Source: Terriglobia bacterium (GTDB lineage Bacteria; Acidobacteriota; Terriglobia; 20CM-2-55-15). Taken from it: a DNA stretch of 64,000 nt. A model generated the notes under the pieces. It was given only the letters and a program-made list of their open reading frames with translations. It ran no database searches and was not told the origin of the DNA. The position numbers and the translations under genes were made by a program. Location of the stretch: NCBI GenBank assembly GCA_965198225.1, contig CBDAOY010000004.1:1-64000 (forward strand), written 5' to 3'. Below are positions 4,182 through 64,000 of this stretch, piece after piece (position 1 is the first letter of the stretch; each line of letters begins with the position of its first letter).

Positions 4182-4435
4182 AACTCCTCCCAATTTCCTC
4201 GAGATTGTCGCGTTGGTGTATCCGGGAATTCTCCTCTTTTGAGCTCTCGGCGGCCAGAATAATACGATCCCTTGTGCTTGGGTTGCATCCACATCCTTAA
4301 TCATCACTCTCCCGGGATGGGCTGATATGTTTCCAAGTGACTGATTGATTGCTTCCAACTCCTTCCTCCCGTACTATTTAGCCAAGTTCTGACACACATT
4401 GGCGACGGAACGCTTCGAGAGGCAGCTTGTAGCCC

Positions 4436-25518: not shown

Positions 25519-26517
25519 TCAACGCTCCCCGTATTCAGTGAGGTGGTCGATTAAGAGGGATGTCATCGGGTCGGGGGCAAGATCCGGGATCCAGTGGCTC
25601 ACGCCCTCCAAGATCTCGAAGCGATACGGTGCTTCGACGTACTGTTCGGTGAGGAGTGCGCCGTCGATACACAAAAACGTGTCTTCGTCACTCCACGTAA
25701 ACATCGTTGGAACTCCCACGGAACCCAATGCCTGCGTCTGTGGGCTGCGGGCGCTGAAGGCCGCACGATACCAGTTGAGCGCAGCCCCAAGCGCCTCCTT
25801 CGAGCCCAGCACACGAACGTATTCGTCGATCGCCTCCGCGTCCAAACCCTCAAAAACGCTGCGAAGCTGCGCGTTGTCGTTGGCCAGAAAAGCGTCTTCG
25901 GAATCCGGCTGGACGAAAACGTCAAAATACGATGATGCCTCGACCTGGCACGAGCCCGGGTCGCTCAAGACCACCTGAAAGGCATCGGGATGCGGGACCG
26001 ACACCGGGTTTGCCGTGATCACACGATCTGCGGCGACGACGGCAACGGACCACGCAATCACCGCGCCCCAATCGTGACCCACGATGTGGAACCGGTCTGC
26101 ACCGATAGCATCTGCCAACCCAATGACATCCTGAACCAGGAGCGGCACTGCATAGTCTCCGATGTTTGCTGGGCGGGCACCGGCGGAGTAGCCGCGCTGG
26201 TTCGGGGCCACGGCCCGGAATCCAGCAGCACCCAGCGCGCTGAGCTGATGCCGCCACTCGTAGGAAGTCTGAGGAAATCCGTGGAGGAGAATCACGACCT
26301 CCCCGTCAGCAGGCCCCGCCGTGCGAACGTCGAATGTGAAACCACCGATCTCAACTTCAATGAGGTCGATCTCGCGGCTGGATTCAGCCGGGTTGCCCCT
26401 CGTACCGGTCTGTGACGCCATGTCGTCTGAGGGAGCGCACCCGCACGCAAGTGAAATGACGACGGCGATTGCCTGGAGAGCGGGTTTGGGCACCACCAGA
26501 TTGTCCCGAATGATCAC
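25519..26517 (-). CDS. Alpha/beta hydrolase (epoxide hydrolase-like), possible lipoprotein
   Basis: LLHGFP, NQRGYS, GHDWGA, NWYRA, SHW. Confidence 0.9.
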
Positions 26518-26741
26518 TTCGCCTCCTCGAATTGCGGATCTGTACGCGAGAACCCGACAAGTTTCGCTTCACGTTCAAATCGGGCGAGACCGTCGGCGTC
26601 CTCTGCAAACTCCGCAGATAGTGTCCGGAGGGCGACTTCACGCCCAAGCTTCATATCTCGGGCACGCAACACCTCTCCCATGCCGCCTCTTCCGAGCGGG
26701 GAGAGGATCTCGTGGCTGCCAAGTTGGGTGCCGGGGGGCAT
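26514..26741 (-). pseudogene. 5' stub of Ser/Thr kinase gene
   Basis: [45 protein letters not shown], then similarity is lost. Confidence 0.9.
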
Positions 26742-26979
26742 GTTCTAACGTGTGTCGAATCGATCCGCGAAAATCTCGGTAAAATACTACGGCAGGAAGG
26801 AGTGGGTAGCAATCAATCCGTCACATGCTTGAGTAACCGCCGATACGGGGCTTTCCGACAGAATCCACTTCGGAGCATAGGCGACTTGAACGAAGCCGCT
26901 GGCGCGGCGGACGCTACGCGTGTGCTGAGCGAAGAGTGATGAGCCCCCGATAGAGTGTGAGCCTCACAAGGAGGCTCAC

Positions 26980-27843
26980 ATGACGAAGCTGCGACAACGG
27001 AGCTGAACTATCTTCGATTCGGCGTATCTTCACGCGGTCGAAGACTTCGCCCGCTACTTCGGGAAGTCCCCCGACAAGCTCGAACAGGAACAGATGCGGC
27101 AGTACCAGCTGCATCTGCTTCAGGAGCGCAAGCTCGCTGTCGACACCATCATCGGACGGATCGCCGCACTCCGGTTCTTCTACGTGAAGGTGCTTCGCCG
27201 TCCCTATCACCAGGTCGATCTGGTCTATCCGAAACAGCCGTCCCGGTTGCCCACGATTCTGAGCGAAGAGGAAGTGGCGCAACTGCTGGCCTCCGCCAAC
27301 AGTGCCTATCACTTCGTCATCCTGATGACCTTGTATTCGACGGGACTGCGGCGGGCCGAGCTGTGTCGTCTGAAGGTCGAGGACGTCGATAGCGAACGCA
27401 TGGTGATCCATGTGAGGCAGGGTAAAGGCAATCGCGACCGCGACGTGCCGCTGTCACCGAAACTGCTGGAAGTCCTGCGCGACTACTGGCGTTGGCGGAA
27501 ACCCGGCGAGTACCTCTTCCCCAGTTTGCTCCGGACCCGGCCCGGACAGCCCATCGATGTGAAGACGGTTTGGTACGCCGTCCAACAAGCCGCCCAACGT
27601 GCCGGCATCAAAAAGAAAGTATCCCCACATACGCTGCGCCACAGCTGGGCCACCCACCTGCTGGAGAGGGGAACCGACCTGCGAACCATCCAGCTCCTGT
27701 TGGGTCATGTCGATCTGGAAGCGACGACCCTCTATCTCCATTTGTCTCAGGCGCACATGCAGCGCGTGGTGAACCCGATCGATTCTCTTCCGGTTCCCGA
27801 TCTGGGACCGTCTCCCCGTCTGAGAAAGAAGAAAGGCGAATGA
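26980..27843 (+). pseudogene. Tyrosine recombinase; 5' end disrupted, catalytic domain intact (open from ~27022, ATG at 27094)
   Basis: RBS + ATG at 26980 (MTKLRQR) hits TGA at 27004; downstream TGLRRAE, QGKG, HTLRHSWATHLLE, LLGH..TTLY. Confidence 0.85.
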
Positions 27844-29009
27844 GCCGGCCCGCCGTCGAGGTGGCCGACATCGTCCGCGCCCGGGTTCGAGGTTTCCTCC
27901 AGCGTCACCGCCTCGGCATCCAGAAGCTCAAGGTCCTGCGCGCCATCCTGAACTGTCGTACTGCGGCTCTGGGTGGCCACATCGACCGGTGTGCCGATTG
28001 TGGCCGGGAGTCCGGAATCTCGTTCAACTCCTGCCGCAACCGCCACTGCCCGAAGTGTCAGACCCAGGCCCGACGACGGTGGCTCGAAGCACGAGAAGCC
28101 GAACTGCTGCCCACCCCCTACTTCCACGTCGTGTTCACCGTCCCGCACCAGTTCCATCCGTTCTTCTTCCACAACCCTGCCCTACTCTACAGCCTGCTGT
28201 TTCGCAGCGTGGCCGACACGATGATCGAGGTGGCGGCCAATCCGAAACGACTCGGCGCCCGGATCGGCTTCTTCGGCATCCTGCATACCTGGAGTCAGAA
28301 CCTGGAGTTCCATCCCCACATCCACTGCGTGGTACCGGCCGGCGGACTGGCTCCGGATCAGTCCCGTTGGATTCCGGGTTCTGGGCGCTTCTTCCTCCCC
28401 AAGCAGGTGCTCGCCCGAGTCTTCCGTGGCAAGTTCATCGACGGGCTCGGGCGAGCGATCGCCGACGGTTCGCTCGAACTGTCCGGCTCGATTCGACCCT
28501 TCGGCGAACCGCAACACTTTCGGCGGTTCCGCCGCCAGATCCATTCCCGCAACTGGGTCGTCTATATCAAACGACCCTTTGGTGGCCCCGAACAGGTGCT
28601 CCGCTACCTGGGCCGCTACACCCATCGGGTCGCCATCTCCAACCATCGATTGATCTCGTTTGACGGTAACCGGGTCCGGTTCCGTTGGCGGGATTACCGC
28701 AATGGCAACAAGAGTCGCATCATGACACTCGCGGCCGACGAGTTCATCCGACGGTTCTTATTGCACGTTCTGCCGAAGGGCTTCGTCCGCATCCGACACT
28801 TCGGATTCATGGCCAACTACCGCCGGTCGGCCGCCTTCGCTCTCTGTCGCCAACTCCTCGATGCCATGCCGAGGGTCGAATCTGACGAAACCACCACCTC
28901 GAACTCTTCCTGGTCGTGTCCGCACTGTCAGGGACCGATGACTCTCATCCAACGCTTCACCGCTCTGCAACTCGTAGCGAGGCTCGCCTTCCAATGCGAT
29001 ACGTCCTAA
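27840..29009 (+). CDS. IS91-family transposase (Zn-binding + Y2)
   Basis: CRTAALGG, NSCRNRHCPKC, HVVFT, HTW..HPHIH (HUH), YLGRYTHRVAISN, RIRHFG. Confidence 0.93.
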   Translation: MSRPAVEVADIVRARVRGFLQRHRLGIQKLKVLRAILNCRTAALGGHIDRCADCGRESGISFNSCRNRHCPKCQTQARRRWLEAREAELLPTPYFHVVFTVPHQFHPFFFHNPALLYSLLFRSVADTMIEVAANPKRLGARIGFFGILHTWSQNLEFHPHIHCVVPAGGLAPDQSRWIPGSGRFFLPKQVLARVFRGKFIDGLGRAIADGSLELSGSIRPFGEPQHFRRFRRQIHSRNWVVYIKRPFGGPEQVLRYLGRYTHRVAISNHRLISFDGNRVRFRWRDYRNGNKSRIMTLAADEFIRRFLLHVLPKGFVRIRHFGFMANYRRSAAFALCRQLLDAMPRVESDETTTSNSSWSCPHCQGPMTLIQRFTALQLVARLAFQCDTS

Positions 29010-29349
29010 TCCTCCTTCACAAACCGACGACCGACGTGCGGTTCAGCCACGTCCTCGCCGGAGTGTGCCTCCGCTGCAAAATCCCCTCAGATCCCGTCCT
29101 TTCAACCCACCGATTCCCCGACCCAACTGCTTTCCGATTCACACCATCGACGCGGTCATCGACCGCCGGTCCCCCTCCTCGCCCCAACGCCACTCCAGAT
29201 CCGGCCCGCTTCCGGCTACTTTCTCCATAGCCCACCGCGTCCGCCGCATTCGGCCAGCGCCCTCCTTCAAGTCTTGTTATCGAAACTGCCGCGGTGGGAA
29301 CTTCTCGCTCATCCTGTGGCCGCGCTCGCCGCGGCACTTCCGATGAACG

Positions 29350-29467
29350 CTAACGACATTACAGAAAGGTGGATTGAAACAGCGTGGTGAATCGAGAGGT
29401 TCTGTGGGAGGCTCGAATCGCGAGGATTGGGGCAGGCACCCCTTCCTTCAGTTCTTCAAACCAGTTC
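29350..29467 (-). repeat. Right half of the kinase-junction repeat with 3' remnant NWFEELKEGVPA
   Basis: Aligns with 62312-62426. Confidence 0.8.
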
Positions 29468-29516
29468 TTGTCACTTCGCCAAGACGGTGGGTCCCATCCT
29501 TCCGCATGCTTGTGGT

Positions 29517-59909: not shown

Positions 59910-60164
59910 TCATGATCTCCTGGCCAAACGACCCGCTTGCCGAATGGTGGCTATATTCGGGTGGTTCAACGGGGCGAGTAGTTTGGCTTCACGTTCAAAC
60001 CGGGCGAGACGTTCTCGATCCTTGGCGAACTCTTCGGGCAAGGTCTTGATCGCCATTTCGCGTCCGAGCCTGGAGTCCCACGTGAGCCACACCTTGCCCA
60101 TCTCGCCCTTTCCGAGGGCTGAAACGACTTCGTGGTGCGCGAGTTTCGAACCGGGCTGGATCAC
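59910..60164 (-). pseudogene. 5' stub of Ser/Thr kinase gene
   Basis: [65 protein letters not shown]. Confidence 0.9.
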
Positions 60165-60436
60165 GCCTGAATAAGACTACAGGAAGGAGTTGGGGTCAAT
60201 CAGAAGGTCACATCCCTGATAAACCGCCTAGCCTGACATCTGAATTGAACCTGAATTCATAGGGTTTCGTGAAAATCCAACTTACCGCGATGGCGACCAT
60301 CCGGACAAGTGGAATTGCTGCACTACTGTTCAGACGATATTCAAGACGGTTACTGAGGATAGGAATGCGGAGTCAGCGATGAGAAGAGAACGAAGACGCT
60401 ACGGGACCGGCACCCCCGTTCCTTCAGTTCTTCAAA
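60148..60436 (-). repeat. Kinase-junction repeat copy B (spacer + FEELKER..VPVP* remnant)
   Basis: Core cgcctagcctgacatctgaattga..attcat.gggttt..gtgaaaatccaacttaccgcgatggcgac shared with 62244-62316. Confidence 0.88.
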
Positions 60437-60527
60437 TCATTTCCGGACGGTGTCGACTCCCGGGGCAGTGGGATTGCGGCAAATCATTTCCGGACGGTGT
60501 CGACTCCCGGGGCAGTGGGATTGCGGC
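60434..60527 (+). repeat. Perfect 47-bp tandem duplication
   Basis: aaatcatttccggacggtgtcgactcccggggcagtgggattgcggc x2. Confidence 0.95.
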
Positions 60528-61877: not shown

Positions 61878-62149
61878 TTATTAGCCTCGTTTGTTACGCG
61901 TTTTGTCGATCGATATGTCGTTTAGATAGAGTTCATCACAGCTACGCAACGCCGGTGCTGTATTCGTTCAGTGTGTGCAAGTGGTGATGATGGCCGTTTA
62001 CTGACCGCTCAGGCCCTCGTTCCACGCCTTCTCTATCACTGGCCGAACGACTTTCGCAGATTCGAGCGACCCGTTTATGCTCAGGCCGGATGGAAGTGCA
62101 GCAAGTCGTTTCGGTAAAGCTCGACCCGAGGATTGCCTGCGGAATCGAA

Positions 62150-62430
62150 CTGTAGTGTGCAAGCTTGGAACCGGGCTGAATCACCCGTAAATAAAACTAC
62201 AGACTGGAGTTGAACGCAATCAATCAGTCACATGGCTGTAGTACGCCTAGCCTGACATCTGAATTGACCCGCATTCATGGGGTTTTGGTGAAAATCCAAC
62301 TTACCGCGATGGCGACTTTACAGTCAAGTGGATCGAAACAGAGTGGCGTATCGACAGGCTGTTGGAACCTCGAACAGCCGGATTCATGGTACCGGCACCA
62401 ATTGCTTCAGTTCTTCAAACCAGTTCAGGA
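62150..62430 (-). repeat. Kinase-junction repeat copy A (gene end + spacer + about 12-codon kinase stub IQPGSKLAHY)
   Basis: Aligns with 60148-60436, with 26780-26888 + 29350-29467, and partly (inverted) with 4337-4381. Confidence 0.88.
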
Positions 62431-64000
62431 CGACGTTGACTTGGGGCGGTGCAGATTCCGTGGTTTCGGTTTGGTCCGCAGGTATGACGACCACGAATCG
62501 TTCCCCGTCGGGCATGATGTCATAGCCTCGGAAGGTGCCGAATACCCCCTCAGCAGGAAGCGCCTGTTCATTTGTGAATGTGAAGCCACGGTCGGTTGCG
62601 ATGTCCACGCTAAAGAGTGTCGCACCTGTGTTGCCCCCAAACGTAAAGGCGCGGCGGTAGAACATTTCCGTTCCGTCACGGGACCACATAGGGAACGCTG
62701 ATGCCACTCGCGTGACCTGAATCCTCGGAAGGCCCGCTTGTGACAACGACTTAACGTAAATCTGATTGGCACCTGATTCCTGAGAAGAGTAGGCCAGCCA
62801 TTCCCCGTCCGGTGAAAACACAGGATCAGATTGGATAGACCCCGGTACGTCATAGAATAGCTCCGGCGTAGACCCCGTCTCCGAGGACACCGTCCATATG
62901 CTCCTACCTCGAACTTGCCCACTACTCGTAAAGGCAAGAGTTTGCCCATTCGGTGACCAGGAACTGGGCCAGACTCCGCTTACGTCCTCCACCGTTAGAA
63001 GTTTCTCGGCGGCTCCGCTCAAGTCTGCGGGTTGTGAGTAAATACCCAGCGTTCCTCCGATGTCTGAAGAGAAAGTGACACGTTCACTATCGGGCGTCCA
63101 GACAGGTCGCTGGTTGCTACCGTCCTGCGTCAACCGCTGGATCTGCGTGTCGCCCGCCAGGTCGTAGACCCATATTTGGTTTGTTCCGTCGTCTTCCTGC
63201 GTCTGGACCGCAAGCCGCGAGCCATCCGGCGAGATACGCGGACTGAAATACTGGGCGGGCGGTACGCTGAGGGGTTCCACGTCGCCGTTACGGTGTGCCA
63301 ATCCGAGAATGCGGCTGACGGCAGGGGTGTCATCAGCCGTGAACACCAGGATGCCGTCTTCTGAAATATCAAAGTTCGCGGCTCCCGTCCTCTTCGCCGC
63401 CACGCTCTGCTGAGCGGGCATTGGATCTGAAGTGACCTCGAGACTCTCTGCATCGAAACCGACTGCCCACAGATCATTGCCGATCACGTAGACGACGTGC
63501 CCGCTGTTGGCATAGCGTGGATTACTGCCGACGGGTGCGACCTCAGACTCAACTCCCGACGCGAAGTCGAGCACGCGTATCTCGGAGGTCTCACCGGAGC
63601 CTTGCCTCGCAGTGAAAAGAACTCCCCGACCATTCGGCAGAAACTCGGGCCACCAGTGGGTCATGCTCCCCTCTGGTTCCGTGAGTGGTCTTGGTTCACC
63701 CCCGGCCTCAGACACTTGCATTAGCCCACCGCCGCCCGTGGCGTATACGATCGTTCCATCCGGACCCCAGCTCGCACCGCGCAGAACTCCACCAAGATCA
63801 ACGATCGTTGACGAAGGCCCGCCCTGGATGGACACCCAGCGAAGCGTATTGTCGCTGTTGACGCCGAACCCCACGCGTGATCCGTCGGGTGAAAAGAACG
63901 GATTCGTTGTCTCTCTCAGATCGAGAAGTTGAGAACTATTGAGCAGGTCCAGACGCCGCATGTACAAGAGGCGACTCCCGTCGTCGTCGTTCAACGTGTA
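62384..64000 (-). CDS. C-terminal TolB-like propeller of a kinase-TolB protein (5' part outside the window)
   Basis: PFFSPDG, WGPDG, WSPNG repeats; ends VNVVLNWFEELKQLVPVP*. Confidence 0.88.
   Translation of the reverse strand, partial: YTLNDDDGSRLLYMRRLDLLNSSQLLDLRETTNPFFSPDGSRVGFGVNSDNTLRWVSIQGGPSSTIVDLGGVLRGASWGPDGTIVYATGGGGLMQVSEAGGEPRPLTEPEGSMTHWWPEFLPNGRGVLFTARQGSGETSEIRVLDFASGVESEVAPVGSNPRYANSGHVVYVIGNDLWAVGFDAESLEVTSDPMPAQQSVAAKRTGAANFDISEDGILVFTADDTPAVSRILGLAHRNGDVEPLSVPPAQYFSPRISPDGSRLAVQTQEDDGTNQIWVYDLAGDTQIQRLTQDGSNQRPVWTPDSERVTFSSDIGGTLGIYSQPADLSGAAEKLLTVEDVSGVWPSSWSPNGQTLAFTSSGQVRGRSIWTVSSETGSTPELFYDVPGSIQSDPVFSPDGEWLAYSSQESGANQIYVKSLSQAGLPRIQVTRVASAFPMWSRDGTEMFYRRAFTFGGNTGATLFSVDIATDRGFTFTNEQALPAEGVFGTFRGYDIMPDGERFVVVIPADQTETTESAPPQVNVVLNWFEELKQLVPVP

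Follow-up and report, generated by a model that had tools for sequence, protein, structure and literature searches.

The 64,000-nucleotide stretch analyzed here (the window; positions 1 to 64,000 of contig CBDAOY010000004.1 in assembly GCA_965198225.1, Terriglobia bacterium, 20CM-2-55-15) harbors at positions 26886-29357 a 2,472-bp copy of an insertion sequence, whose full-length form is 2,499 bp, and copies of this element enter one and the same position of a host repeat. The element encodes a tyrosine recombinase and an IS91-family transposase. It is a 2.5-kb member of the recombinase-carrying subgroup of IS91-family insertion sequences that probably moves by a rolling-circle route, with the recombinase as a proposed accessory or specificity factor. 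Elements of this kind are already known and routinely annotated, and a search of the published literature found no account of target choice or of the role of the recombinase in this subgroup.

Insertion into a palindromic repeat

The interrupted repeat finishes with ...ggagcataGGCGAC at 26885 and restarts with attacagaaaggtggattgaaacag at 29358 (Table 1). An earlier note on this DNA had seen the interruption at this place, with the left half stopping at ~26887; the letters ggcgactt that it assigned to the repeat take in the first two bases of the element, 26886-26887. The element begins with TTGAACGAAGCC at 26886 and ends with ...GATGAACGCTAACGAC at 29357, its closing CGAC being 29354-29357. 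Since CGAC is present at both sides, the limits are equally readable as 26882-29353, four bases leftward. In copy A, an empty copy of the repeat, the two halves read through as ggcgactttacagtcaagtggatcgaaacag at 62311-62341, in agreement with the same note.

Table 1. Positions of the element, its parts, its target and neighboring features in the window.
Feature	Position	Strand	Basis
75-codon N-terminal fragment of a Ser/Thr protein kinase paralogue (pseudogene remnant), in a repeated "junction" module	26514-26741	-	open reading frame, tblastn
Conserved box upstream of kinase paralogues (taaaatactac..ggaaggagt..gcaatcaatccgtcacatg)	26780-26827		related copies
Target site, left arm, ending in core GGCGAC (26880-26885)	26843-26885	+	site-family profiles match
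Insertion sequence copy (TTGAACGAAGCC...GCTAACGAC)	26886-29357	+	99-100% identical copies elsewhere in the genome
Left-end subterminal hairpin GCCGC-TGGC-GCGGC, 9 nt inside the end	26895-26908	+	predicted fold and conservation
Perfect 9-bp hairpin GTGAGCCTC-acaag-GAGGCTCAC	26957-26979	+	read from sequence
Tyrosine recombinase gene (IntI/Xer-like), disrupted in this copy	26980-27843	+	PF00589 3.9e-44; alignment to intact copies
IS91-family HUH-Y2 transposase gene, 389 amino acids	27840-29009	+	PF14319 and PF04986; NF033538
Non-coding right end with GC-rich subterminal palindromes, finishing ...GCACTTCCGATGAACGCTAA-CGAC	29010-29357	+	sequence
Target site, right arm (attacagaaaggtggattgaaacag...)	29358-29385	+	sequence
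C-terminal coding remnant (..NWFEELKE..) of a kinase/beta-propeller paralogue	29428-29467	-	repeat family D3
Empty target site, core GGCGAC 60292-60297	60265-60318	+	sequence
Empty target site (copy A), core GGCGAC 62311-62316	62283-62339	+	sequence

A search of the whole assembly (nine contigs, 6.4 Mb) with a 2,481-nt element query gave 15 matches: seven full-length copies, four partial pieces and four distant relatives with 66-75% nucleotide identity. Six of the seven full copies are identical across 2,499 bp, and the window copy departs from them in no other stretch than element positions ~117-165, where it has lost a net 27 nt and has four substitutions. In the public sequencing run that holds the element best, the depth of the element contig is ~159 while that of the flanks is 18-21, consistent with many copies. 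On the basis of the six identical copies and this depth, the element has recently been active. Among the contigs listed from four public runs, only the form with the intact recombinase is found and the short form of the window is on none; it may thus be a single-copy variant or an assembly error. The partial pieces include a 788-nt right-end fragment and the two parts of a copy split at element position 71/72, and a 5′-truncated copy lies just past the end of the window (contig C4:64330-66555). The right end is retained in three 5′-truncated or partial copies.

The split copy, which lies outside the window, is separated by a 4.3-kb insert (contig C6:342076-346377, locus L126:77-4378) with two group II intron reverse-transcriptase/maturase reading frames (RVT_1 and GIIM), antisense to the element and just upstream of the hairpin preceding the recombinase start. 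A group II intron ltrA gene is also found just upstream of the left end of the Bradyrhizobium relative described below.

Genome-wide, CGAC precedes all of the eight left ends, as GGCGAC in six and GTCGAC in two, and AACGAC closes all of the ten right ends, followed by a tatacg-like sequence. All insertions have the same orientation relative to this asymmetric core. The flanks are diverged but have a common motif, with the consensus GATCCACATGG.AGTATAGGCGAC to the left of the insertion point and TTTACGG.CA.GTGGATT to its right; the target is a ~45-bp imperfect palindrome with an asymmetric center, ATCCAC..CGTATaGGCGAC/TATACGG..GTGGAT (a slash marks the junction here and below). For a non-circular test, a profile was built from 16 empty sites only and searched against the genome after in silico removal of the seven full copies. 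It recovered six of the seven rebuilt insertion sites with E values of 1.4e-7 to 2.2e-5, while the seventh, on contig C7, matched poorly (E 0.34). The profile has 23 matches in the genome at E<1e-3, compared with 108,787 CGAC tetranucleotides, and insertion at the motif is far beyond chance. The suggestion in the earlier note that the repeat may be a preferred target, which insertions at unrelated sites would contradict, is thus upheld: six of the seven full copies are at the same motif position. It holds in a sister genome as well, where an 87%-identical element has six of seven left junctions after CGAC and four of seven after GGCGAC.

The same note had argued from the CTTG/GTTC tetranucleotides used by IS91-family elements, with gaCTTGaac at the left junction. 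These letters are present at 26883-26891, only because the final C of the target meets the TTGAAC of the element. The argument itself is not supported: what is invariant is CGAC, in the left flank and in the last four bases of the element, and the junctions of the family in the sister genome lack CTTG. One of the two flanking CGAC may belong to the element, or the pair may be a 4-bp target duplication; the two readings are indistinguishable by sequence because every target has CGAC.

Outside ~45 nt on each side, the flanks of the seven full copies are unrelated, apart from two pairs that share the same left flank (42 nt and 524 bp, respectively). The 524-bp flank common to two copies has its first base immediately behind the CGAC of another site; it is 97.7% identical between them, whereas the element copies are >99.8% identical. 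Resemblance between the site and the ends of the element was looked for against 3,000 random CGAC contexts, and none was seen between the left arm and the right end (Mann-Whitney p = 0.76) or between the right arm and the left end (p = 1.0). Mimicry of the right end by the site was rejected, its arms being no closer to the element ends than random CGAC contexts.

No empty orthologous site was shown in the sister genomes, in which the malQ side is conserved only from window position 29514 onward and the left flank of the window element matches kinase paralogues only. Assembled contigs of the four public runs contain neither a joint across 26885/29358 nor an end-to-end joint of the element. One contig has a joint from 26816 to 29435, which probably belongs to a paralogous repeat.

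Genes and ends of the element

The earlier description of an inserted element with a tyrosine recombinase and an IS91 transposase is borne out by the domain matches of both genes (Table 1). For the transposase, the matches are PF04986 (9.3e-63), PF14319 (7.2e-31) and the equivalog model NF033538 (432.6 bits, cut-off 125), and the HPHIH and YLGRYTHR motifs in its translation are invariant in 11 relatives. In the window, the recombinase reads MTKLRQRS and then a stop at 27004-27006: the net loss of 27 nt together with the four substitutions brings the stop after eight codons, and the frame re-opens as a reading frame at 27094-27843. Intact copies encode 296 amino acids, and the catalytic columns R..K..HxxR..H..Y are invariant in all of the 11 aligned relatives.

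The intact recombinase matches NF040815 ("site-specific tyrosine recombinase/integron integrase") with 222.9 bits, above the cut-off of 220. Against the integron-integrase model TIGR02249, it scores 203 bits, under the cut-off of 265, and the match is in two stretches (profile positions 4-176 and 238-315) with positions 177-237 skipped. It therefore falls outside the integron integrases, with a score below the cut-off and the IntI-specific middle segment missing. The only above-cut-off integron integrase match in the genome is at C6:488798-489706 (446.5 bits, with one in-frame TGA). No target-site matches are found near this true IntI gene, which is far from all of the sites, and a link to integrons was rejected for this reason.

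The recombinase gene lies directly upstream of tnpA in the same orientation, an arrangement that recurs at 11 related loci and in plasmids of Rhizobium and Bradyrhizobium. The recombinase stop overlaps the transposase start as ATGA (27840-27843), by which the two genes are predicted to be translationally coupled. The perfect hairpin at 26957-26979 holds an AAGGAGG ribosome site directly before the recombinase ATG (26980) and may have a regulatory role.

The hairpin at the left end is part of a motif, GAACGAAGCCGC-N4-GCGGC, kept in five element families, one of them on Rhizobium plasmids. At the right end, hairpins are predicted within the last ~70 nt; four acidobacterial element families have the stretch GCACTTCCGATGAACGCTA in common there, but each has its own last 3-5 nt. 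The ends TTGAACGAAGCC... and ...GAACGCTAACGAC are not inverted copies of each other. Thus, the element has two unlike ends without terminal inverted repeats, each with subterminal palindromes, and a tetranucleotide beside one end with a related one inside the other (CGAC and CGAC), as expected for the IS91 family.

The likeness to IS91, IS801 and IS1294 covers the transposase family (NF033538, with a Zn-binding N-terminus and a Y2 domain), the unlike ends with subterminal palindromes, and a tetranucleotide in one end with the same or a related one in the target beside the other. Like IS91 with its Orf121, the element has an upstream reading frame whose stop overlaps the tnpA start, and one flank was possibly co-mobilized, as in one-ended transposition. 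Unlike IS91, the tetranucleotide is CGAC (GTCG on the other strand) instead of CTTG, GTTC or CTCG, the target is extended to a ~45-bp imperfect palindrome, and the upstream gene encodes a 296-amino-acid tyrosine recombinase, not Orf121. IS608 and other IS200/IS605 elements (HUH-Y1) likewise enter on the 3′ side of a set tetranucleotide, which at one end comes from the flank, carry their own cleavage tetranucleotide at the other end, make no duplication and have subterminal hairpins; they differ in having an unrelated Y1 transposase without a Zn domain, in moving by excision instead of copy-out, and in lacking a recombinase.

Related families and the repeat in its hosts

Of 40 related genomes, 14 have transposase relatives. 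A recombinase of 281-298 amino acids is present in every family examined, and its stop overlaps the transposase start as ATGA in 10 of the 11 loci. Family A, the one in the sister genome (G002; 87% transposase identity, 2,499 bp), has the right end ...GCTAGCGAC in eight of eight loci. Besides the CGAC and GGCGAC of its left flanks, the arms are of the same kind as those of the window site, and its junctions read GGCGAC/AAGAAC or GGCGAC/TAGAAC. The variable first base tracks sub-lineages (AA with GCCGCAG, TA with GCCCCAG) and is thus inherited, so that the idea that it is made at each insertion was rejected. At two loci of this genome (L057 and L058), the last bases of the element are repeated over 13-15 nt just beyond the right end (..GCTAGCGAC/TAGAACGCTAGCGAC), as though a tandem junction had collapsed between the GAACG motifs of the two ends.

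Other families have other ends and targets. Family B, also in G002 (63% transposase identity, ~2,509 bp), has the right end ...AAGCGT and a target that is mostly ..CGT with little other context; three of its 12 loci are head-to-tail tandems. One of its copies, L070, has C for T both in the left flank (CGC/) and in the last bases of the element (..GCGC/), where other copies have GT at both. Family C in G015 (63% transposase identity) has the right end ...AAATGTT and a target preference for cttcggcg/tatcgggag, and several of its copies are inside one repeated flank. The last bases of the right end vary between families together with the left-flank bases: CGAC with CGAC, and GCGT with mostly CGT. 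More distant relatives have other end nucleotides and other targets. In G020, a genome of another genus, one of two element copies sits in the canonical site.

Family D is represented by three identical copies of 2,511 bp on the Rhizobium johnstonii plasmids pRL7, pRL10 and pRL11 (51% transposase identity; right end ..CCAGATTCC). The pairs in R. johnstonii 3841 and in Bradyrhizobium barranii resemble the window element in gene order, ~51% transposase identity, the GAACGAAGCCGC-N4-GCGGC motif and a size of ~2.5 kb; they differ in the right end and terminal bases (..CCAGATTCC) and in flanks devoid of the GGCGAC palindrome, which was absent from the flanks of all three Rhizobium copies. All four plasmid copies (L122-L124 in Rhizobium, L125 in B. 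barranii) are followed within a few hundred bases by a transposase gene, which is named IS5-family in three of the four (two of the three in Rhizobium), and the three Rhizobium right flanks have a common ATCA.GATTCA motif 10-20 nt from the junction. Family D may home to the ends of another insertion sequence.

The target repeat itself is more widespread than the element. Its sequence model matches 18 of the 40 related genomes. A genome of the same genus (G003) has 18 site matches and only two partial transposase matches, and one of another family (G038) has 18 site matches and no transposase match. Since relatives that lack the element have the site as well, the repeat belongs to the host and was not made by the element. 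In the genome of the window, nine of 26 sites are within ~250 nt of a match to Ser/Thr-kinase/beta-propeller paralogues and the others are not. The kinase-linked sites follow a C-terminal ...NWFEELKERVPVP end and precede the start of the next kinase.

The sites form clusters in a few regions, with a common orientation inside each. In three clusters (C9:763-820 kb, C6:295-342 kb and C4:26-68 kb), sites and element copies are co-oriented, and the 5′-GTCG strand is the locally G-rich strand, with a skew of 0.009-0.017 over +/-100 kb; this skew is slight and comes from contigs that are not closed, and kinase gene orientation confounds the effect.

Folding of the site was also examined. In a 15-pair helix compared over 16 empty sites, 50.4% of the cells are paired, compared with 54.9% in shuffles, and no excess of compensatory changes is seen. 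DNA folding of 23 sites gave a mean z score of -0.67, with z <= -2 in only five. A selected hairpin was rejected on the lack of covariation and the weak folding, and the site is accordingly called a consensus-level imperfect palindrome and not a proven hairpin. The intact repeat has no Rfam match, and in the copy at 62000-62500 no consensus sigma-70 promoter or terminator was found; a promoter in the conserved box is therefore not claimed.

The target resembles integron attC sites in being an imperfect palindrome of two boxes with many co-oriented copies, and TIGR02249 is among the best subfamily matches of the recombinase. Unlike IntI, the recombinase is without the IntI-specific insert and scores below the cut-off. 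In attC, the crossover is in the outer R′ box; the window element is inserted, unlike this, at the center of the palindrome, between two inverted box pairs for which no covariation supports a hairpin. The element also differs from Xer/dif hitchhikers (IMEX) in having at least 23 target sites per genome and a recombinase of its own.

The neighborhood of the window element belongs to the kinase modules. The kinase fragment at 26514-26741 is matched by a full-length kinase/beta-propeller paralogue in tblastn over kinase-domain query residues 4-62 with 61% identity; it has no Pfam match at E<=1e-3. Related copies of the conserved box are at 60167-60211 and 62188-62235, with an inverted copy at 4333-4381, and NWFEELK-like tails end 21 reading frames in the genome. 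"Junction-only" modules without gene bodies lie between unrelated genes (26514-26741 with 29428-29467, and 59943-60152 with 60404-60443). Each combines the C-terminal codons of one kinase/propeller paralogue with the intergenic site and box and with the opening ~70 codons of the kinase that comes next. In the module at 60 kb, a perfect 47-nt tandem duplication (CAAATCATTTCC...GGGATTGCGG, 60433-60526) immediately follows the C-terminal remnant.

Route of insertion and its alternatives

Insertion at CGAC catalyzed by the transposase through a rolling circle is somewhat favored. The element would enter in one orientation, exactly after GGCGAC at the center of the ~45-bp palindrome, and the transposase would cut at CGAC both in the own end of the element and in the target, as IS91 does at CTCG and at CTTG or GTTC. 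The layout may be read as CGAC-TTGAAC...GCTAA followed by the target CGAC, with CGAC replacing CTCG/CTTG/GTTC. The recombinase, in the gene position of Orf121, would act as an accessory factor for recognition of target or ends, for termination or for resolution. Rolling-circle cutting at CGAC would account for CGAC on both sides, the truncated copies that keep the right end, the tandems in relatives and the one possibly co-mobilized flank. The terminal and target bases that change together, the truncated copies, the tandems and the 524-bp flank are all consistent with such copying.

A 2026 study on IS91 describes terIS as lying upstream of orf121-tnpA with its own cleavage tetranucleotide inside, and the target tetranucleotide as adjoining oriIS (PMC13181058). 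According to the same study, no target duplication is made, the inserted form is a bottom-strand single-stranded circle, adjacent DNA is mobilized when termination fails, and Orf121, ATGA-coupled to tnpA, improves the precision of termination (PMC13181058). GTCG accounts for one of 277 IS91 insertions in the first column of its Table 2, and the study does not mention recombinases (PMC13181058).

Several points weigh against this rolling-circle route. Canonical IS91 reads only a tetranucleotide, so that the 45-bp context needs an extra explanation. Neither a circle junction nor an empty-site joint is present among the assembled contigs of the public runs, the hairpin idea lacks covariation (50.4% versus 54.9%) and strong folding (mean z -0.67 over 23 sites), and the left arm of the site is unlike the right end of the element (p = 0.76). 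The 524-bp flank, at 97.7% identity compared with an element difference of <0.2%, may be an older duplication that received the element two times. The agreement between right-end bases (..ATGTT) and left flank (..GGCG) is no more than loose in family C, and the matched odd base of L070 (CGC and GCGC) is not predicted by a simple HUH model.

Similarity to its own ends is not what guides the element to the 45-bp context. The recombinase is the obvious candidate reader, whether it acts in specificity or termination or is itself the integrase. For the accessory role, Tn916 offers a precedent: Rocco and Churchward are said to have reported in 2006 that its integrase, a tyrosine recombinase, directs the relaxase Orf20 at oriT, thus giving sequence and strand specificity to a nicking enzyme. 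Tn916 is another type of element than the one in the window.

That the recombinase is itself the integrase, with the transposase only making a circular copy, is a less probable alternative. The circle junction (..GCTAACGAC/TTGAACG..) would recombine with the palindromic site, whose arms would be binding sites and whose CGAC would be the crossover core. The target is indeed laid out like a recombinase site, with inverted arms (ATCCAC and CGTATA boxes) around a short asymmetric center, and consensus-level palindromy without compensatory changes is more in keeping with a protein that recognizes duplex DNA than with a selected hairpin. Integron and Xer integrases are the most similar to the recombinase, which is kept intact with its catalytic columns invariant in 11 of 11 relatives, and the matched odd base of L070 would be the outcome of an overlap-identity requirement. 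On the other hand, the circle junction has no inverted arms: TATACGG, CCGTATA, GTGGAT and GGCGAC are absent from the element, and the one ATCCAC is in its middle. Junction and target have only 4 bp in common, whereas the overlap regions of tyrosine recombinases are usually longer, 6-8 bp. Families B and C carry the same recombinase yet have short or non-palindromic targets, and the truncated copies and tandems resemble rolling-circle products. Room for a second enzyme is left by IS91 itself, since its double-stranded circles are not inserted by TnpA according to the study cited above (PMC13181058).

It is improbable that the target repeats are relics of IS91-type elements, detached ends or end-to-end junctions beside which the element nests with its old kin. 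Right-end-like sequence does stand directly before the left end in two other families (three of three loci in G035 and one locus in G017). The arms of the site are, however, no closer to the element ends than random CGAC-adjacent sequence, genomes that lack an intact element of this type nevertheless have sites, and no such end is found in the distant relatives of the element in the genome, of which only profile match positions, not alignments, were compared. Copying of the element with its surroundings by segmental duplication or homologous recombination among the kinase arrays, with no target choice, is highly improbable and largely refuted: the proximity of nine of the 26 sites to kinase or propeller matches and the two pairs with identical left flanks speak for it, but apart from these pairs the flanks are unrelated beyond ~45 nt, copies that agree in the left flank differ in the right one, there are 16 empty sites, and a different element family in another genome is at the same motif position.

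The earlier note had further named the recombinase or the HUH enzyme as a candidate engine for shuffling the array. One 524-bp left flank starting after CGAC fits this idea, which is weakened by the 97.7% identity of that flank compared with >99.8% for the elements, so that the two copies may have inserted independently into paralogous sites. In a bolder and rather unlikely extension, the recombinase may lend a rolling-circle HUH transposon an integron-like site specificity, by binding the two-box palindromes and steering the nick to CGAC or by joining a single-stranded circle to the site, and any DNA between two such sites, whole kinase genes and their upstream regions included, could then be copied and put back in like a cassette.

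IS91-family elements are known as gene mobilizers of weak specificity that target four bases, and the single-base precision seen here is unlike the textbook IS91. An element of this kind can home to one position of a ~45-bp repeat, and from family to family its terminal bases shift in step with those of the target. The natural record of this is unusually clean: copies are identical, sites without the element are present, and a sister family has inserted at the same base. The system allows direct tests of how HUH transposase and tyrosine recombinase work together and of the way in which target choice is encoded. A route for rearranging gene arrays bounded by such sites is suggested as well; if the unlikely cassette-like copying were true, the element family would drive the expansion and shuffling of kinase arrays in these Acidobacteria.

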